Shown in pieces: positions 1,553 through 44,828 of a stretch of DNA of 47,721 bases (position 1 is its first letter; every line of letters begins with the position of its first letter). The notes beneath the pieces were generated by a model, which did no database searches, was not told the DNA's origin, and saw only the letters and a program-made list of their open reading frames with translations. The DNA is from a virus (lineage: Duplodnaviria > Heunggongvirae > Uroviricota > Caudoviricetes), in the IMG/VR virus record IMGVR_UViG_2684622772_000013. One strand, given 5' to 3'. Position numbers and translations under genes: made by a program.

Positions 1553-1741
1553 TCACGAGGACTGAAGTTTCTCGCAATTAAAATTTATCAGTTTTACTTT
1601 CTGCTCTCTGGAAACGCCTGCTTCTTTTTTACCTGAGAGCATTTTTTCGCATTCTGATTTCGTTAGTTTAGATTTTGAATATCTTGTCCAGTTAGTAGGA
1701 GTGCCACCTTCCTTTTCAATAGTGGCGGTAATTTTATACAT
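1553..1741 (-). CDS. ydaC: Rac-type small protein YdaC
   Basis: Track ORF 1553..1813 trimmed to internal ATG MYKITATIEKEGG...; overlaps the ralR reading frame in the K-12-like arrangement. Confidence 0.6.
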   Translation of the reverse strand: MYKITATIEKEGGTPTNWTRYSKSKLTKSECEKMLSGKKEAGVSREQKVKLINFNCEKLQSS

Positions 1742-5837: not shown

Positions 5838-6008
5838 TTAAAGTTCATGTGCCATCTGGTCTTTTTCGGCACAAGCTTCACTGCAATATTTTCTCGGTTC
5901 GTCTTTTGATAAAATCCCGTGCATGAAGTGAAGCATTCTTTCAATAGCTTTGCTTTCTTCAACGTCTTTTTTGCAAAGGTGGTAAGCACATTTTATTTTC
6001 TTAGTCAT
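5838..6008 (-). CDS. ydaE: Small Cys/His-rich protein YdaE (metallothionein-like)
   Basis: 56-aa minus-strand ORF below the 60-aa track cutoff, translated by hand: [56 protein letters not shown]; start overlaps kilR stop. Confidence 0.7.
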   Translation of the reverse strand: MTKKIKCAYHLCKKDVEESKAIERMLHFMHGILSKDEPRKYCSEACAEKDQMAHEL

Positions 6009-6229
6009 CACCATGACTCCGCCTTTACAGGTAAACCATCACGACCGAGGAAGACTTTAATCATGCGGTCAGTAATGCATGTTTTTGTGGTCAGGTTACG
6101 AATATATAGTTTTCGCTTTTTAATATTGTTTGCCGAGGCAATATATGTCCGGCCTTCATGAAGAACATAATCGCCAGGAGTCACACACTGACGTGGTATT
6201 TCATCAGTTCCGAAGTGATGTGCAATCAT
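6008..6229 (-). CDS. kilR: KilR, cell-division (FtsZ) inhibitor
   Basis: Track ORF trimmed to [46 protein letters not shown] (73 aa), matching recalled KilR. Confidence 0.88.
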
Positions 6230-6670
6230 AATTATCTCCATTTTTACAAATGAACTTTGTTGATGCGGTGCCTGGTGCCTCCAGGTGACTGCAACCAGTT
6301 AACAATTACAGTCGGCTTTCCCACCCAAACCAATAAGGACTAACATGACTTTTAACTGTGCCACGTGCGCTTAGCCGCATTCACCGCATCACAAAATTCA
6401 CTTTAAAAAGGGCGGACATCAGCCGAACTTCAAGAAAAAAACTGATGCCGCCAGGACTACACACAGCAATGTCGTTATTTACAACCGGAGGCGCACTCCC
6501 ACCATTTAAATTTAACAGACAAGACCGACTCTTTATGGATATCGGAAATGCGCCTTCGTGTTGTGCCCGGTTTTATTTCACCACCTCCGGGCTTCGGTGG
6601 TCTCGGCTATACCCCTACAGCGAGAGCTTGTGTTAACATTTCAATACCCTTACAGTTGAGAGTTATTGAT

Positions 6671-7159
6671 ATGTTGGATGTATTTACTCCATTGTTGAAA
6701 CTTTTTGCTAACGAGCCACTCGAAATACTTATGTATACGATTATCATTTTTGGTCTCACTCTCTGGCTGATACCGAAAGAGTTTACTGTCGCATTCAATG
6801 CTTATACTGAAATACCTTGGCTCTTTCAGATTATCGTTTTTGCCTTTTCTTTCGTGGTCGCCATTTCCTTCTCAAGATTGCGAGCACATATTCAAAAGCA
6901 TTATTCATTACTACCAGAGCAACGAGTATTGCTTCGTTTATCTGAGAAAGAAATCGCTGTATTTAAAGATTTCCTTAAAACAGGAAATCTTATTATCACT
7001 TCTCCTTGCCGTAACCCGGTTATGAAAAAATTAGAACGGAAGGGCATCATTCAACATCAGAGTGATAGCGCAAACTGTTCTTATTATCTCGTCACCGAAA
7101 AATACTCCCATTTTATGAAGTTATTCTGGAACAGCAGGAGTAGACGTTTTAATCGTTAG
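6671..7159 (+). CDS. sieB: Superinfection exclusion protein B
   Basis: Track ORF trimmed to ATG at 6671: MLDVFTPLLKLFANEPLE...FWNSRSRRFNR (162 aa), matching recalled SieB; hydrophobic N-terminal segment. Confidence 0.88.
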   Translation: MLDVFTPLLKLFANEPLEILMYTIIIFGLTLWLIPKEFTVAFNAYTEIPWLFQIIVFAFSFVVAISFSRLRAHIQKHYSLLPEQRVLLRLSEKEIAVFKDFLKTGNLIITSPCRNPVMKKLERKGIIQHQSDSANCSYYLVTEKYSHFMKLFWNSRSRRFNR

Positions 7160-7311
7160 CTTACTGTGTGCTTCTCCAACCATCGGCGCGCACCAGTTTC
7201 GGTTTTAAATGTTTTGCTTTTGGTATACGTCATGGCAGTGAACGTTCCATCCTGGTTGGGGAACACGCCGCACACCAGGGATTCGTTGTTGCCGAGGTCG
7301 ATTTTTTGCAT
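7156..7311 (-). CDS. ydaF: Small protein YdaF
   Basis: 51-aa minus-strand ORF below the track cutoff, translated by hand: MQKIDLGNNESLVCGVFPNQDGTFTAMTYTKSKTFKTETGARRWLEKHTVS; convergent 4-nt overlap with sieB stop. Confidence 0.7.
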   Translation of the reverse strand: MQKIDLGNNESLVCGVFPNQDGTFTAMTYTKSKTFKTETGARRWLEKHTVS

Positions 7312-7321
7312 TTTGCGAATC

Positions 7322-7456
7322 TCACATCTTGTTGCTGTGTATAGCGACTTCTGCCTGCCAGAGATCCCAGTCGTTGCTGCGTAAAGCCTGCACAGCCTGG
7401 TTGTAAGTGATACCGCAACAATCCATCAAATACTGAACTACTTCGTAATGCACCAT
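7322..7456 (-). CDS. ydaG: Small protein YdaG
   Basis: Track ORF 7322..7504 trimmed to MVHYEVVQYLMDCCGITYNQAVQALRSNDWDLWQAEVAIHSNKM (44 aa). Confidence 0.7.
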   Translation of the reverse strand: MVHYEVVQYLMDCCGITYNQAVQALRSNDWDLWQAEVAIHSNKM

Positions 7457-7620
7457 CTTATCTCTCCCCTTAACGCCGGGTGGCGGAACTGAAACCTGCT
7501 GCACTGCAAAATCTGAACCCTGCCGTCATGTTCATACGCCTCGGGCTGGCTACTTAACCCCTGACCACTGCCTGGTAACTCGAAGTATTGCCCTGCGTTC
7601 TGTGGGGCGGGGTGGGTTGG

Positions 7621-7680
7621 TAGGTATATAATGTACTTTGTGTTCATTGATGTAAAGTACTATAAGTACATTTTGTGTGT
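7621..7680. promoter_or_regulatory. Candidate leftward early promoter with operator-like ATGTACT / AGTACAT repeats
   Basis: Copies of ATGTACT (7631-7637) and its complement AGTACAT (7656-7661, 7664-7671) lie between the repressor 3' end and ydaG; the same motif recurs in the repressor/cro intergenic region. Confidence 0.4.
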
Positions 7681-7746
7681 AAAAAAATGAGATGGGATAA
7701 AGTGAAGCACAAACCCGGAGGGGGACGCTACCGGATTTATGCTGGT

Positions 7747-8184
7747 TTAAGAGGCTTTTTGTTTTTTCTTTCGTGCTAGCTCTTCGTAAATTGCATTGTA
7801 CTTCTGTTTTTTCTCCTCAAGAGTTTTTAAAAGTTCATCTGTCTCACTGTCAGGGAGCTCGTCCAGAAGGTCAATGATGATTTTTTGTCTTGGATTTAAC
7901 TCCTGATAGAAACGTACCTGTCCACTTTCTTCTGTATCCTCTCCCAAAAGATAGGTTGGTGTTGTTCCAATGAGTGTTGCTAATTCCCTTAATTTCTCTC
8001 GGCGAGGAATTGTTTCGCCATTAAACCATTTGCTAACCGCTTTTGGTGTTAATTTCATTCGACGGGCAATTTCTGCCTGCCTTCCATGTTGTTCATAACC
8101 AGCGTTTTCACAGGCTAGCGCAAGCCTACTGGCGAACTCTTTACGCGCTTTATCTTCATGAACCATAAGTTCAATGATATTCAC
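7747..8184 (-). CDS. Prophage repressor, XRE/cI-type HTH (RacR-equivalent position)
   Basis: HTH segment RQAEIARRMKLTPKAVSKWFNGETIP; divergent from a Cro-like gene. Track start is GTG at 8182-8184; an in-frame ATG lies 18 nt downstream, so the start is ambiguous. No C-terminal S24 peptidase motif seen. Confidence 0.7.
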   Translation of the reverse strand: MNIIELMVHEDKARKEFASRLALACENAGYEQHGRQAEIARRMKLTPKAVSKWFNGETIPRREKLRELATLIGTTPTYLLGEDTEESGQVRFYQELNPRQKIIIDLLDELPDSETDELLKTLEEKKQKYNAIYEELARKKKQKAS

Positions 8185-8245
8185 TCTTGAATGTACTGTC
8201 AGTTCTGTTATAGCATGTACTCAAAGTTCACATTGTGAGGGTGAT
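8185..8245. promoter_or_regulatory. Divergent repressor/cro promoter-operator region
   Basis: Two ATGTACT copies (8191-8197, 8215-8221) overlap a candidate rightward promoter (TTGAAT, ~17-nt spacer, TATAGC) upstream of the Cro-like gene. Confidence 0.45.
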
Positions 8246-8500
8246 ATGAACCAGAAAACACTTGAAGATGTAATCAAAACTGTTCGCGTTTCTGTTGTGG
8301 CCGACGTTTGTGGTGTCAGCCAAAGAGCAATCTACAAATGGATGGATAACGGAAAATTGCCTCGCACAGAATATACCGGCGAAACAAATTACGCTGAAAA
8401 AATCGCTCATGCATCAAACGGATTATTTTCTGCTGATGTAATTTTAACTATTGGCAGAAATAAAACTACTACGAAAAAGCTGATGGGAGTTGATTCATGA
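8246..8500 (+). CDS. Cro/YdaS-like HTH regulator
   Basis: 84 aa from ATG at 8246 (MNQKTLEDVIKTVRVSVVADVCGVSQRAIYKWMDNGKLPR); GAGGG ribosome-binding site upstream; divergent from the repressor. Confidence 0.75.
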   Translation: MNQKTLEDVIKTVRVSVVADVCGVSQRAIYKWMDNGKLPRTEYTGETNYAEKIAHASNGLFSADVILTIGRNKTTTKKLMGVDS

Positions 8501-8919
8501 AAATCAAGCATGAGCACATCGAGTCAGTGTTGTTAGCCCTGGCAGCCGAAAAAGGGCAGGCATGGGTAGCCAATGCCATTACTGAAGAATATCTGCGCCA
8601 GGGGGGCGGCGAATTGCCCCTGGTACCAGGCAAGGACTGGAATAATCAGCAGAATATCTATCACCGTTGGTTGAAAGGTGAAACGAAAACGCAAAGAGAA
8701 AAAATTCAGAAGCTGATCCCAGCAATTCTGGCAATCCTTCCGCGCGAGCTGCGTCACCGACTCTGCATCTTCGATACCCTGGAACGCCGTGCATTACTGG
8801 CGGCGCAGGAAGCGTTAAGTACGGCAATTGATGCGCATGATGATGCAGTCCAAGCCGTTTACCGGAAAGCGCATTTCAGCGGCGGCGGGTCTTCCGACGA
8901 TTCTGTCATTGTTCATTAA
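8497..8919 (+). CDS. ydaT: YdaT-like protein (toxin/cII-like regulator of the YdaS-YdaT pair)
   Basis: 140 aa, MKIKHEHIESVLLALAAEKGQAWVANAITEEYLRQ; start overlaps the Cro-like stop (ATGA); matches recalled Rac YdaT length and N-terminus. Confidence 0.65.
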   Translation: MKIKHEHIESVLLALAAEKGQAWVANAITEEYLRQGGGELPLVPGKDWNNQQNIYHRWLKGETKTQREKIQKLIPAILAILPRELRHRLCIFDTLERRALLAAQEALSTAIDAHDDAVQAVYRKAHFSGGGSSDDSVIVH

Positions 8920-8931
8920 GCAAAAGTTTCC

Positions 8932-9789
8932 ATGCTGTTTGTGCTTATTCTAAGCCACCGGGCAGCATCATACGGGGCAATTATGGCCGCATTACCATAC
9001 ATGCAACTGTACATAGCTGATTACCTGGCTGACACCATGCATTTGTCAGCAGAGGAGCATGGTGCGTATTTGTTGCTGATGTTCAATTACTGGCAAACAG
9101 GAAAGCCAATACCTAAAAACAGGCTGGCAAAAATTGCCCGTCTGACTAACGAGCGATGGGCTGATGTTGAACCATCCTTGCAGGAGTTTTTTTGCGATAA
9201 CGGCGAGGAATGGGTGCATCTTCGGATTGAGGAAGATCTGGCATCAGTCAGGGAAAAATTAACCAAAAAATCAGCCGCAGGAAAAGCATCTGTTCAGGCC
9301 AGAAGAAGCAGAAAGGAAGCAGATGTTCAAACAAAACAAGAGAGAAATTTAACAGGTGTTCAAACAGATGTTGAAGTGGTGTTTGAACATGATGTCAACA
9401 CAAAGGCAACTAATAAAGATACAGATAAAGATCTAAAAACAGATCCCCCCCTAAATCCCCCCCGGGGGAATCGAGGTGTCAAAAAGTTTGACCCTCTGGA
9501 TATTGCTTTGCCGAACTGGATTTCTGTCTCGCTTTGGCGTGAGTGGGTTGAATTTCGCCAGGCATTGCGAAAACCGATTCGAACGGAGCAGGGCGCTAAC
9601 GGGGCGATACGGGAGCTGGAAAAATTCCGCCAGCAGGGTTTTTCACCTGAGCAGGTGATTCGACACAGCATCGCCAATGAATACCAGGGCTTGTTCGCGC
9701 CGAAAGGTGTTCGACCTGAGACGTTACTCCGACAGGTTAACACCGTCTCGTTACCGGATAGTGCGATCCCGCCAGGCTTCAGGGGGTAA
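8932..9789 (+). CDS. ydaU: Replication initiation protein, YdaU-like (DUF1376)
   Basis: 285 aa, same length as recalled Rac YdaU; sits upstream of the DnaC-like loader; contains iteron-like repeats and an AT-rich tract in its central linker. Confidence 0.75.
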   Translation: MLFVLILSHRAASYGAIMAALPYMQLYIADYLADTMHLSAEEHGAYLLLMFNYWQTGKPIPKNRLAKIARLTNERWADVEPSLQEFFCDNGEEWVHLRIEEDLASVREKLTKKSAAGKASVQARRSRKEADVQTKQERNLTGVQTDVEVVFEHDVNTKATNKDTDKDLKTDPPLNPPRGNRGVKKFDPLDIALPNWISVSLWREWVEFRQALRKPIRTEQGANGAIRELEKFRQQGFSPEQVIRHSIANEYQGLFAPKGVRPETLLRQVNTVSLPDSAIPPGFRG

Positions 9790-14895: not shown

Positions 14896-15708
14896 AACCA
14901 CCTCCTCCAAAACATGCATTAAAAATGCATCTTTTGGAGGGTTATGTCAAGCTGTTATGAAACACATAATTGATATGTTGATTAGAGGAGAAGATAGAAT
15001 AAATATGGTTGTTTTTCGTATAACTATTTGTTTTACTTTTAGTTTATGCATTCTGTGTGTTAGGAATAAGTTATTAAAGTTTAATCAAAAAATCTCGATG
15101 TAGTCCACATAGATTACTGTTACTGAACCTTATTGTGTGTATTAGTTGTGTTCTGAAATTTCAGCTTAATTATTTATGATGTATTTTTTAACGATAAATA
15201 TTTTCCCAGGATACCTTTACTGTGTATATAAATAAATTATATACGCATAAATAATGTAAAGGCGTCCTTTTAGATATATCTTATCAAATGTTAATGACTT
15301 GAGTGGGAAATATGATTCCAGCAACTTATCATGTGGCTACTTTATAAAAATAATGCCCATATAAAACAACAAGCGAAAAGGATTACGGATAAAAAAGGAG
15401 CGAGATGTGCGAACTTGTTATTTTCCATGTTTAACCACCTTAAATAATTGATGATGACGGGATGATTGCATCTGTAATGCTTTTATTGAAATGTTATGAT
15501 AAAAAAGAACTTTTGCATAACATTAAAATGTAATTTATCTAATCGTTTTTAATAATAAGTGTCGTATTTCTATCCTTGTACCAGCTATTTGATATGTAGT
15601 GTTTGTTCATGCTATGTGGGGCTTTACACCATAGCCAGTTTATTTATACTTTATTCGTCAGCCTGAACAACTGGCATCTGCTGCGCTGCGCCATCGAGAG
15701 ATTGAGAA

Positions 15709-17245: not shown

Positions 17246-18181
17246 CGTCAGGAAAGCAGGGGAGAATGCTGCTAGTTGGGCAACTGGTCTTTCTGCTCCA
17301 AATTATAACAGAGACCAGTTATAGTTTCGGTGCTGTGTTTTTTTTACAATATTGTGATAACACATTGCTGGCGGGAGTTTTGATATTTCTTGGCAGGGGC
17401 TGATGATGCGTTATCCTGATGTCGTCAACTCATATAAAATGAGATGAGAGATCATTGCAGGGTGGTTTGTAATTCGCTGTTTAGCGGGACAATATGTTGT
17501 CTGATACAAGACACCCGACGCCTCAGATTACTATAATAAAGACGAAGCATCCTTTGTATTGACCAACCGCCTGTTTAGGCGGTTCTTTTTGGGCTGGTTT
17601 ATTGTATGCCAAATGATTATTAAAAAGGTTGTGTTAATAACAAGATCCGAAATAATATGCCTGCATATTTTTATCTTGCTTATATTCTGCATATTGTGCA
17701 TAGCAGGCTCATCCCTGCAATCAAAACTGTATGATGAGTATTTTTTGTTTTCCTTTTTTCCAGTCATCTGATGATGACCTGCTTCTTTTTAATCCGGATC
17801 GACATCAGTTTTTTAAGATAATTCCTGCGAGTTATATGCATAAATGCCACAAACTCCGCATTTTATGTGGTTGGGAGTTGCCGGGCGCGCAGTGAGTTTG
17901 CTAAGAAAACTCCTGCATGGTGAATCCCCCTGTGCGGTGGGGTGATACCATTAACCTTTTCTGTCGCCGACAGGTATCACGAACATTTTGTTCACCGGGA
18001 GGCACCCGGCACCATGCACTTCAATAGATTCTCTCCACATTATGGATATTCTTTCAGAATATCCCACGCAGACTTTGTGTAAATGTTAACAAATGTGCGT
18101 TTTATTTGATCTGATTCGCTGTTTGAGCGTCCAAAACAACGGTATATATAATCCTTTACTATATGACATATGTGAGGAAAA

Positions 18182-20072: not shown

Positions 20073-20322
20073 NNNNNNNNNNNNNNNNNNNNNNNNNNNN
20101 NNNNNNNNNNNNNNNNNNNNNNNNNNNNNNNNNNNNNNNNNNNNNNNNNNNNNNNNNNNNNNNNNNNNNNNNNNNNNNNNNNNNNNNNNNNNNNNNNNNN
20201 NNNNNNNNNNNNNNNNNNNNNNNNNNNNNNNNNNNNNNNNNNNNNNNNNNNNNNNNNNNNNNNNNNNNNNNNNNNNNNNNNNNNNNNNNNNNNNNNNNNN
20301 NNNNNNNNNNNNNNNNNNNNNN
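20073..20322. other. Assembly gap (250 N)
   Basis: Run of N; truncates the endolysin 3' end and the Rz/Rz1 5' ends. Confidence 1.
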
Positions 20323-23085: not shown

Positions 23086-24010
23086 TGATTTTTGCGCCTT
23101 TATTCTGACTCACGGGCGACCGGACAAAGTTCTGACTTACCGGACGTTGCGTCGTGCTGGCTATACCGGGAAAATTTTTATCGTTGTTGATGATGAAGAT
23201 AAGACACGGCATCAGTACATGGCTGAATTTGGTGAACAGGTGCTGGTATTTTCCAAAGCCGATATTGCTAGTCGTTTTGACGAAGCCGATAATTTTAGTG
23301 ACCGCCGCTCAATTTTTTACGCCCGTAATGCCTGTTTCGACCAGGCAAAACTGGTCGGGTGTAAATACTTCATTCAGCTCGATGATGATTATCACGAGTT
23401 CCAGTTTCGGGTGGATCGCAACTATGACCAGGCCTATTTCCCGATAAGGAAACTGGATGAGATCCTTTCTGAAATGCTTGCGTACTACGAATCAATACCT
23501 GCTCTTTCCATCGCTATGTCGCAGGGCGGGGATTTTCTTGGTGACAATGGCGGCCATGCTTCGTGGGTGAAACGCAAGGCAATGAACAGCTTTATCTGTT
23601 CGGTTGATCGACCGTTCTCATTCATGGGGCGCATTAACGAGGATGTGAATACGTACACGAATCTCGGTCGCTGTGGTGAATTGTTTATGACGATCGGTGC
23701 TGTCCAGTTAGGGCAGAAACAGACGCAGAAAAACAGCGGCGGAATGACCGAGCTGTATCTGGATTCCGGAACCTACGTTAAAAGTTTTTACTCCGTCATG
23801 TATGCGCCGTCGTGCGTAAAAATCTCACTTATGGGTGCCAGTCATAAACGCATTCACCATCAGGTCACCTGGAACAACGCTGCAGTAAAAATCCTTCACG
23901 AAAAATACAGGAAGAAGACACCCTGCATATCAATGGGGGTGACAAATGATTCCGTATTCGAAAGTCGAGTCTCTGGCAGCGTGCCGGATGACTGCACAAC
24001 AAATCGCTGA
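23078..24010 (+). CDS. Putative GT-A-fold glycosyltransferase-like protein
   Basis: Start chosen at second ATG with GGAGG ribosome-binding site, overlapping the upstream stop; AFILTHGRPDKVL...KIFIVVDDEDK and a DxD-like QLDDDY motif. Confidence 0.4.
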   Translation: MRDDFCAFILTHGRPDKVLTYRTLRRAGYTGKIFIVVDDEDKTRHQYMAEFGEQVLVFSKADIASRFDEADNFSDRRSIFYARNACFDQAKLVGCKYFIQLDDDYHEFQFRVDRNYDQAYFPIRKLDEILSEMLAYYESIPALSIAMSQGGDFLGDNGGHASWVKRKAMNSFICSVDRPFSFMGRINEDVNTYTNLGRCGELFMTIGAVQLGQKQTQKNSGGMTELYLDSGTYVKSFYSVMYAPSCVKISLMGASHKRIHHQVTWNNAAVKILHEKYRKKTPCISMGVTNDSVFESRVSGSVPDDCTTNR

Positions 24011-39082: not shown

Positions 39083-39332
39083 NNNNNNNNNNNNNNNNNN
39101 NNNNNNNNNNNNNNNNNNNNNNNNNNNNNNNNNNNNNNNNNNNNNNNNNNNNNNNNNNNNNNNNNNNNNNNNNNNNNNNNNNNNNNNNNNNNNNNNNNNN
39201 NNNNNNNNNNNNNNNNNNNNNNNNNNNNNNNNNNNNNNNNNNNNNNNNNNNNNNNNNNNNNNNNNNNNNNNNNNNNNNNNNNNNNNNNNNNNNNNNNNNN
39301 NNNNNNNNNNNNNNNNNNNNNNNNNNNNNNNN
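39083..39332. other. Assembly gap (250 N)
   Basis: Run of N between the L and K homologues. Confidence 1.
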
Positions 39333-40555: not shown

Positions 40556-43500
40556 ATGGGTAAAGGCAGCAGTAAGGGGCATACCCCGCGCGAAGCGAAG
40601 GACAACCTGAAGTCCACGCAGCTGCTGAGTGTGATCGATGCCATCAGTGAAGGGCCGGTTGAAGGTCCGGTGGATGGATTAAAAAGCGTGCTGCTGAACA
40701 GTACGCCGGTGCTGGACAATGAGGGGAATACCAACATCTCCGGCGTCACGGTGGTGTTCCGGGCAGGTGAGCAGGAGCAGTCACCGCCGGAGGGGTTTGA
40801 ATCCTCCGGCTCCGAGACGGTGCTGGGTACGGAAGTGAAATATGACACGCCGATCACCCGGACCATCACGTCGGCAAACATCGACCGTCTGCGCTTTACC
40901 TTCGGTGTACAGGCACTGGTGGAAACCACCTCAAAGGGAGACAGGAATCCGTCGGAAGTCCGCCTGCTGGTTCAGATACAGCGTAACGGTGGCTGGGTGA
41001 CGGAAAAAGACATCACCATTAAGGGCAAAACCACCTCGCAGTATCTGGTCTCGGTGGTGGTGGATAACCTGCCTCCGCGCCCGTTCAGTATCCGGATGCG
41101 CAGGATGACACCGGACAGCACCACAGACCAGCTGCAGAACAAAACGCTCTGGTCGTCATACACCGAAATCATCGATGTGAAACAGTGCTACCCGAACACT
41201 GCACTGGTCGGCGTACAGGTGGACTCGGAGCAGTTCGGCAGCCAGCAGGTGAGTCGTAATTATCATCTTCGCGGGCGCATTCTGCAGGTGCCGTCGAACT
41301 ATAACCCGCAGACGCGACAATACAGCGGTATCTGGGACGGAACGTTAAAACCAGCATACAGCAACAACATGGCCTGGTGTCTGTGGGATATGCTGACCCA
41401 CCCGCGCTACGGCATGGGGAAACGTCTTGGTGCGGCGGATGTGGACAAATGGGCGCTGTATGTCATCGGCCAGTACTGCGACCAGTCAGTGCCGGACGGC
41501 TTTGGCGGCACGGAGCCGCGCATCACCTGTAATGCGTACCTGACCACACAGCGCAAGGCGTGGGATGTGCTCAGTGATTTCTGCTCGGCGATGCGCTGTA
41601 TGCCGGTATGGAACGGGCAGACGCTGACGTTCGTGCAGGACCGACCGTCGGATAAGGTGTGGACCTATAACCGCAGTAATGTGGTGATGCCGGATGATGG
41701 CGCGCCGTTCCGCTACAGCTTCAGCGCCCTGAAAGACCGCCATAATGCCGTTGAGGTGAACTGGATTGACCCGGATAACGGCTGGGAGACGGCGACAGAG
41801 CTTGTGGAGGATACGCAGGCCATTGCCCGTTACGGTCGTAACGTCACGAAGATGGATGCTTTTGGCTGTACCAGCCGGGGGCAGGCACACCGCGCCGGGC
41901 TGTGGCTGATTAAAACAGAACTGCTGGAAACGCAGACCGTGGACTTCAGCGTGGGCGCAGAAGGGCTTCGCCATGTGCCGGGCGATGTCATTGAAATCTG
42001 TGATGATGACTATGCGGGTATCAGCATCGGCGGGCGCGTGCTGGCGGTAAACAGCCAGACCCGGACGCTGACGCTCGACCGTGAAATCACGCTGCCATCC
42101 TCCGGTACCATGCTGATAAGCCTGGTTGACGGAAGTGGCAATCCGGTCAGCGTGGAGGTTCAGTCCGTCACCGACGGCGTGAAGGTGAAAGTGAGCCGTG
42201 TTCCTGACGGCGTTGCTGAATACAGCGTGTGGGGGCTGAAGCTGCCGACGTTGCGCCAGCGCCTGTTCCGCTGTGNNNNNNNNNNNNNNNNNNNNNNNNN
42301 NNNNNNNNNNNNNNNNNNNNNNNNNNNNNNNNNNNNNNNNNNNNNNNNNNNNNNNNNNNNNNNNNNNNNNNNNNNNNNNNNNNNNNNNNNNNNNNNNNNN
42401 NNNNNNNNNNNNNNNNNNNNNNNNNNNNNNNNNNNNNNNNNNNNNNNNNNNNNNNNNNNNNNNNNNNNNNNNNNNNNNNNNNNNNNNNNNNNNNNNNNNN
42501 NNNNNNNNNNNNNNNNNNNNNNNNNNNNNNNNNNNNNNNNNNNNNNNNNNNNNNNNNNNNNNNNNNNNNNNNNNNNNNNNNNNNNNNNNNNNNNNNNNNN
42601 NNNNNGCTGACAGTCCGGGCGGTAAATGCCTGGGGACAGCAGGGCGATCCGGCGTCGGTATCGTTCAGGATTGCCGCACCGGTAGCACCGTCGCGGATTG
42701 AGCTGACGCCGGGCTATTTTCAGATAACTGCCACGCCGCATCTTGCGGTTTATGATCCGACGGTACAGTTTGAGTTCTGGTTCTCGGAAACGCGGATTAC
42801 CGATATCAGGCAGGTTGAAACCACAGCCCGCTACCTTGGCGCGGGGCTGTACTGGATAGCCGCCAGTATCAATATCAAACCGGGCCATGATTATTACTTT
42901 TATATCCGCAGTGTGAACACCGTTGGCAAATCGGCATTCGTGGAGGCCGTCGGTCGGGCGAGCGATGATGCGGAAGGTTACCTGGATTTTTTCAAAGGCA
43001 AGATAACCGAATCCCATCTCGGTAAAGAGCTGCTGGAAAAAGTTGATCTGACGGAGGATAACGCCAGCAGACTGGATGAGTTTTCGAAAGAGTGGAAGGA
43101 CGCTAACGATAAATGGAATGCGATGTGGGGCGTCAAAATTGAGCAGACCAAAGACGGCAAACATTATGTCGCGGGTATTGGCCTCAGCATGGAGGACACG
43201 GAGGAAGGCAAGCTGAGCCAGTTTCTGGTTGCCGCCAATCGTATCGCGTTTATTGACCCGGCAAACGGGAATGAAACGCCGATGTTTGTGGCGCAGGGCA
43301 ACCAGATATTCATGAACGACGTGTTCCTGAAGCGCCTGACAGCCCCCGCCATTACCAGCGGTGGCAGTCCTCCGGTATTTTCCCTGACATCAGACGGAAA
43401 GCTGACCGCTAAAAATGCGGATATCAGTGGTAGTGTGAATGCGAACTCAGGAACGCTCAACAATGTCACGATTAACCAGAACTGTACGATTAAGGGCATG

Positions 43501-44023: not shown

Positions 44024-44828
44024 ATGCGTAAAGTTTGTGCCGCCATTTTGTCCGCAGCCATTTGTCTGGCCGTATCCGGTGCGCCTGCATGGGCGTCTGA
44101 ACATCAGTCCACGCTGAGCGCGGGGTATCTTCATGCCCGGACCAACGTTCCCGGCAGTGATGATCTGAACGGGATTAACGTGAAATACCGTTATGAGTTT
44201 ACGGATACGCTGGGGCTGGTGACGTCATTCAGCTATGCAGGAGACAAGAATCGCCAGCTGACCCGTTACAGCGATACCCGCTGGCATGAAGATTCCGTGC
44301 GTAACCGCTGGTTCAGCGTGATGGCGGGGCCGTCTGTGCGCGTGAATGAATGGTTCAGCGCGTATGCGATGGCGGGTGTGGCTTACAGCCGTGTGTCGAC
44401 TTTTTCCGGGGATTATATCCGCGTAACTGACAATAAGGGGAAAACGCACGATGTGCTGACCGGAAGTGATGACGGTCGCCACAGCAACACNNNNNNNNNN
44501 NNNNNNNNNNNNNNNNNNNNNNNNNNNNNNNNNNNNNNNNNNNNNNNNNNNNNNNNNNNNNNNNNNNNNNNNNNNNNNNNNNNNNNNNNNNNNNNNNNNN
44601 NNNNNTTTCTCCGGGGATTATCTCCGCGTAACTGACAACAAGGGGAAAACGCACGACGTGCTGACCGGAAGTGATGACGGTCGCCACAGCAACACGTCTC
44701 TGGCGTGGGGAGCTGGCGTGCAGTTTAACCCGACCGAATCCGTGGCCATTGATATTGCTTATGAAGGCTCCGGCAGTGGCGACTGGCGCACTGACGGTTT
44801 CATCGTGGGTGTCGGTTATAAGTTCTGA
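44024..44828 (+). CDS. lom: Outer membrane protein Lom (Ail/Lom family), interrupted by gap 44491..44605
   Basis: Signal peptide MRKVCAAILSAAICLAVSGAPAWA and C-terminal ...GFIVGVGYKF beta-barrel terminus; the gap is flanked by a near-identical ~90-bp duplicate. Confidence 0.85.

Follow-up and report, generated by a model that had tools for sequence, protein, structure and literature searches.

The immunity region considered here lies in a window of 47,721 nucleotides (the whole stretch of DNA that was analysed, from IMG/VR virus record IMGVR_UViG_2684622772_000013, a virus of the Caudoviricetes). At its centre is a short repressor gene at 7747-8166 on the minus strand, encoding a protein of 139 amino acids (aa) in which aa 1-74 form a helix-turn-helix (HTH) domain, followed by a disordered linker and a helical C-terminal hairpin resembling that of DicA and the Gifsy repressors. 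A cro-like gene runs divergently from it, and the intergenic stretches on both sides of the repressor gene hold copies of the heptamer ATGTACT, which were originally predicted to be repressor operators. We conclude, with a probability of roughly 90%, that five 15-bp repressor-binding sites of the type known from phage HK022 flank the repressor gene of what is a common Rac-like Escherichia coli prophage; the binding as such is predicted from sequence comparison.

Five dyad sites around the repressor gene

Exact copies of ATGTACT are found at 7631-7637 (plus strand), 7665-7671 (minus strand), 8191-8197 (plus strand) and 8215-8221 (plus strand), confirming the repetition described in the original prediction; the only copy in the window outside the repressor flanks is at 23214. 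A further copy had been placed at 7656-7661, where the letters read AGTACT, part of AAGTACT at 7655-7661. It holds as a copy with one mismatch and not as an exact one, and together with the copy at 7665-7671 it forms the two halves of a single operator. When the four exact copies are aligned, each is seen to have a partner at a fixed gap of five bases (ATGTAC-TTTGT-GTTCAT, ATGTAC-TTATA-GTACTT on the minus strand, ATGTAC-TGTCA-GTTCTG and ATGTAC-TCAAA-GTTCAC), and the heptamer reads as the better-conserved half (A+TGTAC+T) of a 15-bp dyad with two-fold symmetry, TGWAC-N5-GTWCA (W, A or T; N5, a five-base spacer). The dyad was derived from the HK022 annotation, with operator sequences taken from GenBank (X16093 for HK022, HM173637 for HK75); the operators annotated there read TGAACCATAAGTTCA (oR1 and oR3), TGTACTATCAGTTCC (oR2), and TGTACTTAAAGTTCA and AAGTACCAATAGTACA (oL). 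The link between motif and repressor specificity that had been proposed for the heptamer is thus upheld, with the 15-bp dyad rather than the heptamer as the unit of recognition, and the operator type is one already known from HK022 and, more distantly, from 933W.

At the two clusters the dyad pattern gives three exact matches and two with one mismatch, the mismatches falling solely at the outer positions 1 and 15. Among the left operators (OL), OL1 (TGTACTTTGTGTTCA, 7632-7646, an exact match) lies between the -35 and -10 hexamers of a PL-like promoter, overlapping the -10, and aligns to HK022 oL TGTACTTAAAGTTCA, while OL2 (AGTACTATAAGTACA, 7656-7670, one mismatch at position 1) overlaps the PL -35 and aligns to HK022 oL AAGTACCAATAGTACA. 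Among the right operators (OR), OR1 (TGTACTCAAAGTTCA, 8216-8230, exact) stands directly downstream of the -10 of a PR-like promoter and aligns to HK022 oR TGAACCATAAGTTCA; OR2 (TGTACTGTCAGTTCT, 8192-8206, one mismatch at position 15) overlaps both the PR -35 and a -35-like element of PRM, and aligns to HK022 oR TGTACTATCAGTTCC; and OR3 (TGAACCATAAGTTCA, 8159-8173, exact, with TGAAC halves) is centred on the repressor ATG (8166-8164, minus strand). OR3 had been overlooked, leaving the earlier list of operators incomplete: it has no ATGTACT, and is picked up by the symmetric model at 8158-8174 as ATGAAC-CATAA-GTTCAA. With two operators to the left of the repressor gene and three to the right, the proposed likeness to the OL/OR layout of lambdoid immunity regions is supported. 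The starts of the sites are 24 bp apart within each pair (OL1-OL2 and OR2-OR1), the OR3-OR2 spacing is 33 bp, and OL and OR are 584 bp apart. Both regions align to HK022 without gaps: the 33- and 24-bp spacings are equal, and the promoter hexamers fall in register.

Two further candidates were considered and rejected. The best candidate for a third OL site, at 7678-7692 (TGTAAAAAAATGAGA), has four mismatches and was not accepted. A possible sixth site at 15595-15609 (TGTAGTGTTTGTTCA), in AT-rich DNA upstream of a DUF1367 gene, is probably due to chance: the invariant position 5 is here a G, and the site recurs with 100% identity in strain 181.1, where the prophage differs in its immunity region.

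Over the whole window, dyad matches with at most one mismatch number 14 where 4.56 are expected, and none of 100 shuffles reaches 14. The heptamer itself is not over-represented (5 copies against 3.84 expected, with 35 of 100 shuffles reaching 5). The original prediction had proposed to judge the motif by its frequency elsewhere in the prophage; this frequency is not diagnostic of operators, because operators are expected at OL and OR only, as is seen here. The clustering of the heptamer, in turn, is non-random: four copies fall within ~121 nt of two intergenic stretches where 0.01-0.02 would be expected (Poisson P ~4e-10 with the composition of the window, ~7e-9 with the local AT-rich composition), a post hoc test on a word chosen after its repetition had been seen, and thus supportive only and to be read together with the comparative evidence. 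The longer pattern ATGTACT-N4-GTWC, likewise post hoc, has 4 matches in the window, all at these clusters, against 0.01 expected.

Conservation of the sites and exchange of the DNA-binding domain

For a deep comparison, one genome per species was scanned with an alignment of the DNA-binding domain, yielding 38 loci from 20-odd genera of the Enterobacterales, the Pasteurellaceae and Pseudomonas (Escherichia/Shigella, Klebsiella, Enterobacter, Kluyvera, Salmonella, Pantoea, Brenneria, Pectobacterium, Providencia, Proteus, Xenorhabdus, Arsenophonus, Haemophilus, Gallibacterium, Pseudomonas and others). Dyads with at most one mismatch stand at -64, -40 and -7 from the start codon in most of these loci, which are the positions of OR1, OR2 and OR3, and at about -84 and -27 in the Pasteurellaceae loci; in about half of the loci further matches follow downstream of the repressor, in most cases with a pair spaced by 24 bp among them. 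The OR zones contain 79 matches in 3,458 bp against 65 in 146,672 bp elsewhere, a ~52-fold difference in density that is no probability, the loci being mutually related and the counts not independent events. In a logo of 138 half-sites from 69 distinct sites, position 6 is T or C, and the centre A or T, in 130 of 138 cases each; positions 6 and 8 lie outside the search pattern, while the conservation of G2, A4 and C5 partly reflects selection by it. At close range, among six relatives that are 96-99% identical, all substitutions within operators fall in the N5 spacers (OL1 7641; OL2 7662, 7664 and 7665; OR1 8222) and none in the half-sites, while adjacent non-operator bases vary.

Two E. coli prophages show what the motif travels with. 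The ET846 repressor has the same DNA-binding domain joined to an S24 tail, and its locus carries three OR and three OL dyads. The CFT073 prophage has the same repressor tail and left flank (83% nucleotide identity), an unrelated DNA-binding domain without a Pfam match, and a YdaS-type Cro; no dyad occurs in its 5.3 kb, and the OL and OR positions are taken instead by TACCYRYRGGTA repeats spaced at 24-25 bp. Since ET846 keeps the dyads and CFT073 has none, the motif follows the DNA-binding domain and not the tail or the flanks. The CFT073 repeats (L003 2576-2612 and 3110-3150) are in themselves a candidate for the uncharacterised operator set of a heteroimmune sibling module.

The DNA-binding domain of the window repressor (aa 1-80) is 69% identical to that of the S24-type CI of ET846, 56% to HK022 CI and 46% to phi24B CI. 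In a tblastn search against phage genomes, the first ~100 residues resemble CI of HK022/HK75 (47%) and CI of 933W-like Stx phages (51%, aa 1-73). The recognition helices of the window repressor (TPKAVSKWFNGE) and HK022 CI (TPKAISKWFNGE) are near-identical, and the residues that are invariant in the domain alignment include K42, S45, K46, W47, F48 and N49. The repressor of 933W recognises a rotationally symmetric 15-bp site with G at position 2, A or T at position 3 (T preferred), invariant A4 and C5, T or C at position 6, and A or T at the centre; S41, K42 and K46 are its modelled base contacts, and of the mutants S41A and K46A that were tested, K46A loses all specific binding (PMC3317979). 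The window sites fit these rules, as does the logo of the 138 half-sites, which also agrees with the HK022 annotation; the final T of the heptamer is explained by the rules since it is operator position 6. Position 1 co-varies with the protein: it is C in 13 of 22 half-sites of repressors with S-S before K42, as against 1 of 154 half-sites of the T-P type, to which the window repressor belongs.

The Cro-like protein is HK022-type wherever the dyads occur, so that the co-variation does not separate it from the repressor, and the Cro proteins of lambdoid phages do bind such operators. One could thus suppose that the Cro-like protein or some other early regulator is the sole ligand of the sites, and that the 139-aa HTH protein binds elsewhere. 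We regard this as very improbable: dyads of the same kind are, by experiment, CI sites in HK022 (PMC8053113, citing Carlson and Little 1993) and in 933W (PMC3317979); the recognition helix of the repressor is almost identical to that of HK022 CI; the residue-to-base co-variation tracks this helix; and OR3 sits on the repressor's own start codon. It is very improbable, too, that the 7-mer itself is the recognition unit, in independent or directly repeated copies and with no 15-bp dyad. Three of the four exact copies do have the same orientation, and their partner halves are weaker (GTTCT, GTTCA and GTACT), yet OR3, which lacks ATGTACT, is the best-conserved site of all; moreover, across the 69 distinct sites the two halves, set a constant 5 bp apart, each retain G2, A4 and C5, the unselected positions 6 and 8 are symmetric, and the homologous 933W repressor binds a rotationally symmetric 15-mer (PMC3317979).

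The notion that the repeats reflect chance or composition, whether as AT-rich promoter DNA or as a duplication of a PL/PR promoter segment that serves no particular protein, could appeal to the AT-richness of both clusters (35-37% GC against 46% for the window), to the chance-level heptamer count, and to a 22-nt direct repeat that joins the OL1 and OR1 regions. It is already contradicted by the comparative data and retains next to no probability: the half-sites are conserved while spacers and inter-site DNA drift, in close relatives as well as across genera, the motif is gone where the flanks remain but the DNA-binding domain is another, and the clustering has P ~1e-8 even with local composition. 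Just as negligible is the proposal that the sites are targets of the YdaT/CII-like protein encoded downstream, for although the YdaT protein of CP-933P does bind DNA at an inverted repeat, that repeat is TTGATT-N6-AATCAA and thus another sequence than the dyad (PMC9986795), the dyads are present in HK022, HK75 and ET846, whose CII is unrelated to YdaT, and CFT073 has a YdaT gene and none of the dyads.

Promoters, repressor protein and predicted course of repression

The claim that the motif overlaps -35 and -10 elements is confirmed by a consensus scan and by the gap-free alignment to the annotated pR and pL hexamers of HK022. The PL-like promoter (7628-7656, minus strand) has a -35 TTTACA (7656-7651), a 17-nt spacer and a -10 CATTAT (7633-7628); these hexamers were found independently by the scan (9/12) and are collinear with the annotated HK022 pL (TTTACA / CATCAT). 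The PR-like promoter (8187-8214, plus strand), which was read from the sequence, consists of a -35 TTGAAT (8187-8192), a 16-nt spacer with a TG at 8206-8207, and a -10 TATAGC (8209-8214), collinear with the annotated HK022 pR (TTGACT / CATAAT). The PRM-like promoter (8174-8202, minus strand; scan 10/12) combines a -35 CTGACA (8202-8197, inside OR2), a 17-nt spacer and a -10 TATCAT (8179-8174). This -10 ends 7 nt before the repressor ATG at 8166, which implies that the repressor mRNA would be leaderless, with the PRM start in the ATG region. Across the enterobacterial loci a PRM -10-like hexamer (TATGAT, TATAGT or TATCAT) is conserved directly before OR3, and the OR2 spacer keeps a -35-like CTGAYA (Y, C or T); the conserved hexamers are consistent with a conserved PRM.

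An RNA hairpin at 7706-7743 on the minus strand starts 4 nt after the repressor stop (-19.4 kcal/mol, z -5.6, none of 200 shuffles as stable), and close relatives differ from one another in the loop alone. With no U-run next to it, the hairpin is not a canonical terminator, and no canonical terminator was found; it could mark the 3' end of the repressor transcript or stabilise that transcript. A put-like element in the PL leader is not supported, the fold of 7470-7627 (minus strand) being less stable than shuffles (z +1.7); a single 13-nt match is all that 7460-7627 shares with putL of HK022/HK75. The first ~60-160 nt of the PL transcript (window 7465-7622) recur in conserved form in over 3,700 E. 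coli records, among them prophages whose immunity type is a different one. Rfam returned no RNA family in the immunity region (window at gathering thresholds; 7300-8700 at E up to 1). Its gathering-level matches elsewhere are the small RNA RalA at 1557-1735 (plus strand, 225 bits) and STnc100 at 17885-18071 (plus strand, 86.6 bits); RalA is the antitoxin of the Rac RalR/RalA pair.

To the right, the Cro-like gene (8246-8500, plus strand, with a GAGGG ribosome-binding site at 8237-8241) encodes 84 aa and falls in a PHROG transcriptional repressor family; the protein shares 59% identity with HK022 Cro, 44% with phi24B Cro and only 23% with the YdaS-type protein of CFT073, and is a probable second ligand of the same operators. 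It is followed in the PR operon by a gene for a YdaT / CII-like regulator (8497-8919, plus strand; Pfam YdaT_toxin, PHROG CII-like activator). Leftward lie an open reading frame for a 44-aa UBA-like protein, a ydaF-like (DUF1391) gene and, assigned by PHROGs, a homologue of the septation inhibitor Kil (6008-6241, minus strand), which belongs to the PL operon; sieB is on the opposite strand. Four runs of N (masked sequence) interrupt the late/tail gene region, at 20073-20322, 39083-39332, 42276-42605 and 44491-44605.

We place the start of the repressor at ATG 8166 (139 aa) and not at GTG 8184, because the latter is not conserved, reading CGC on the plus strand in all five relatives, and because phage Tritos and RefSeq annotate the gene as 420 nt. 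Codons 1-3, ATG-GTW-CAn (8158-8166, minus strand), form the centre and right half of OR3 and encode Met-Val-His/Gln. Across loci L007-L044, all proteins with OR3 over the start codon begin with MV(H/Q), whereas the Pasteurellaceae homologues, with OR3 upstream of a ribosome-binding site, have a different N-terminus; the N-terminus of the repressor looks to be under a dual constraint from coding and operator function. Pfam finds HTH_3 only, with no Peptidase_S24 and no family on the tail, while it does detect Peptidase_S24 in the ET846 homologue; the window repressor thus does not carry the C-terminal S24 domain of a lambda-type CI. In length and architecture it fits the DicA/Gifsy-type short repressors, and its best NCBIfam match is the DicA model (aa 35-143, 56.6 bits; family cut-off 101 bits). 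An AlphaFold2 model (pLDDT 81.8, the predicted local distance difference score) folds aa 1-74 into a five-helix HTH and aa 92-138 into a helical hairpin, with a low-confidence linker (79-86) in between. A Foldseek search of this model against the PDB gave generic HTH_XRE matches only (E 1e-3 or weaker), none of them informative for the tail, and the sequence search against the PDB found only the N-terminal domain of P22 C2 (E 0.006). The same tail is present on short repressors of Salmonella, Arsenophonus and Xenorhabdus. In Salmonella enterica (L049 4588-5255 and L051 4553-5220), where the short repressors are 62-65% identical to that of the window, a higB/higA-like toxin-antitoxin pair lies between the repressor gene and the OL pair, an arrangement analogous to paaA2-parE2 in CP-933P. 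Our literature searches found no paper on the window repressor or its operator sites, nor on phage Tritos, and the database records examined for the immunity module list no operator features.

From the homologues we infer that repressor dimers bind the operators through the HK022-CI-type HTH domain. Occupation of OL1 and OL2 would block PL, and with it kil, the DUF1391/ydaF-like gene and other early genes; occupation of OR1 and OR2 would block PR, and with it cro and the ydaT/cII-like gene. OR3 lies over the repressor ATG and the predicted leaderless PRM start, and high repressor levels would there shut off the repressor's own synthesis. In the lytic state the HK022-Cro-like protein would most likely bind the same sites. 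With the Kil homologue encoded in the PL operon, the host is expected to suffer toxicity once OL is no longer repressed, and the operators would thus serve to keep a toxic early operon silent. RecA-stimulated self-cleavage of the repressor is unlikely because its C-terminal half is DicA/Gifsy-like, with no S24 peptidase domain; by analogy we favour inactivation by a small antirepressor.

A number of observations weigh against this account of the dyads as repressor operators, or against parts of it. The heptamer is at chance level over the whole window, which leaves its clustering, judged post hoc, as the statistical argument; the 38 loci are mutually related; and co-variation cannot tell the repressor from Cro, as both are of HK022 type at every locus with dyads. 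PR was not reported by the strict consensus scan, and the centre of OR2 lies ~33 bp upstream of the inferred PRM start, where OR2 may either activate or repress PRM. As for the protein, the DicA match falls below the family cut-off, and the cooperativity and looping of HK022 reside in an S24-type C-terminal domain that has no counterpart here. With regard to induction, the LexA box CTGT-N8-ACAG has no match in the window, no antirepressor gene was found in the window, though no search with antirepressor sequences was made, and none is annotated at the right end of the prophage of strain EC2.

The module (7560-8520) is present at a nucleotide identity of at least 97% in 1047 of 5426 complete E. 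coli genomes (~19%), and also in phages Tritos and vB_EcoS-666R9/673R7/613R10; in strain EC2 the prophage adjoins uspF/ompN, the Rac site. The immunity region in the EC2 complete genome is near-identical to that of the window (99.9% over 7100-8950), and the right end of this prophage, beyond the window (L052 5095-8544), carries stfR-tfaR and then, adjoining uspF/ompN, a cargo of sitABCD iron/manganese transporter genes. For a module that is found in about one in five complete E. coli genomes and also in temperate phages that are active (Tritos, vB_EcoS-666R9), exact coordinates of operators and promoters are thus available.

We speculate that the repressor is a natural chimera, a DNA-binding domain of HK022 specificity joined to a DicA/Gifsy-type tail that is targeted by antirepressors, so that its carriers would be immune to HK022-family phages and the prophage would be induced by antirepressors acting in trans; we put this forward tentatively, as somewhat more doubtful than not. 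The chimera junction maps to the linker, at about aa 68-101. If the idea is right, this immunity would extend to ~19% of complete E. coli genomes, and induction would proceed through trans-acting antirepressors instead of RecA cleavage, immunity specificity and induction signal having been uncoupled by domain shuffling. The comparison itself shows lambdoid repressors rebuilt through exchange of DNA-binding domain and tail at the linker, with the operators following the DNA-binding domain; such swapping predicts cross-immunity with HK022-type phages together with an induction route unlike that of HK022.

Relation to HK022 and other known switches

The closest likeness is to HK022 (X16093, AF069308) and its relative HK75, which share the dyad TGWAC-N5-GTWCA; OR3 is identical in 15 of 15 bases, and in both HK022 and the window the cI ATG lies at the OR3 centre. 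The repressors differ beyond the DNA-binding domain: HK022 CI has 235 aa (a 708-nt coding sequence), is of the self-cleaving S24 (LexA-like) type and has a C-terminal domain that mediates cooperativity, whereas the tail of the window repressor is a ~50-aa helical DicA-like hairpin. HK022 CI binds cooperatively to adjacent operators and forms loops between OL and OR (PMC8053113, citing Carlson and Little 1993). In the window an order of occupancy and affinity, cooperativity, and looping may exist as well; they are not transferable from HK022, because the window repressor lacks the S24-type C-terminal domain. No equivalent of the extra OFR operator of HK022 was found downstream of cro in the window, and the flanking genes are Rac-type (ydaF, kil, sieB, ydaT, ydaU and ydaV) and not nun/cII.

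More distant are 933W and phi24B (PMC3317979; EF517298), with a symmetric 15-bp site (phi24B OR1 is CGTACTGAAAGTACG), a G-W-A-C core, T or C at position 6, A or T at the centre, conserved recognition-helix residues K42, S45 and K46, and an OR3 that overlaps the cI start. Here the differences extend to the operators, since 933W sites begin with C (CGTAC) and the repressor has S-S before K42 instead of T-P; besides the 46% identity of phi24B CI in the DNA-binding domain, the 933W repressor is S24-type and reportedly non-cooperative.

In overall build the repressor resembles DicA of Qin and GfoR, GfhR and GtgR of Gifsy, short lambdoid repressors that are not cleaved and are inactivated by small antirepressors, one of which can also act on heteroimmune repressors (PMC3121763; bioRxiv 10.1101/2023.04.14.536235). 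It shares with them a length of ~135-150 aa, an N-terminal HTH, the lack of an Ala-Gly/S24 module, a DicA-like helical C-terminal segment, and the OL/OR layout around a divergent cro-like gene; it differs in that its match to the DicA model stays below the family cut-off and its DNA-binding domain, and hence its operators, are of HK022 type. The immunity region of CP-933P of E. coli O157:H7, with PaaR2, YdaS and YdaT (PMC8630535), is likewise that of a Rac-like cryptic prophage, with a short HTH repressor, a leaderless repressor mRNA (as predicted for the window), operator sets at OR and OL, and a YdaT regulator downstream. Its operators, however, are 18-bp palindromes based on GTTTAGTAA, its Cro analogue is YdaS-type, and paaR2 is co-transcribed with a toxin-antitoxin pair.

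Operator type, layout and short-repressor class are thus all known, and the module is an ordinary switch of which this is a previously uncharacterised member; current understanding is not overturned, and a well-known switch design is extended. What is added here to the known systems is the third OR site, the assignment of the operators to the HK022 type, and a possibly chimeric repressor with a non-standard tail.

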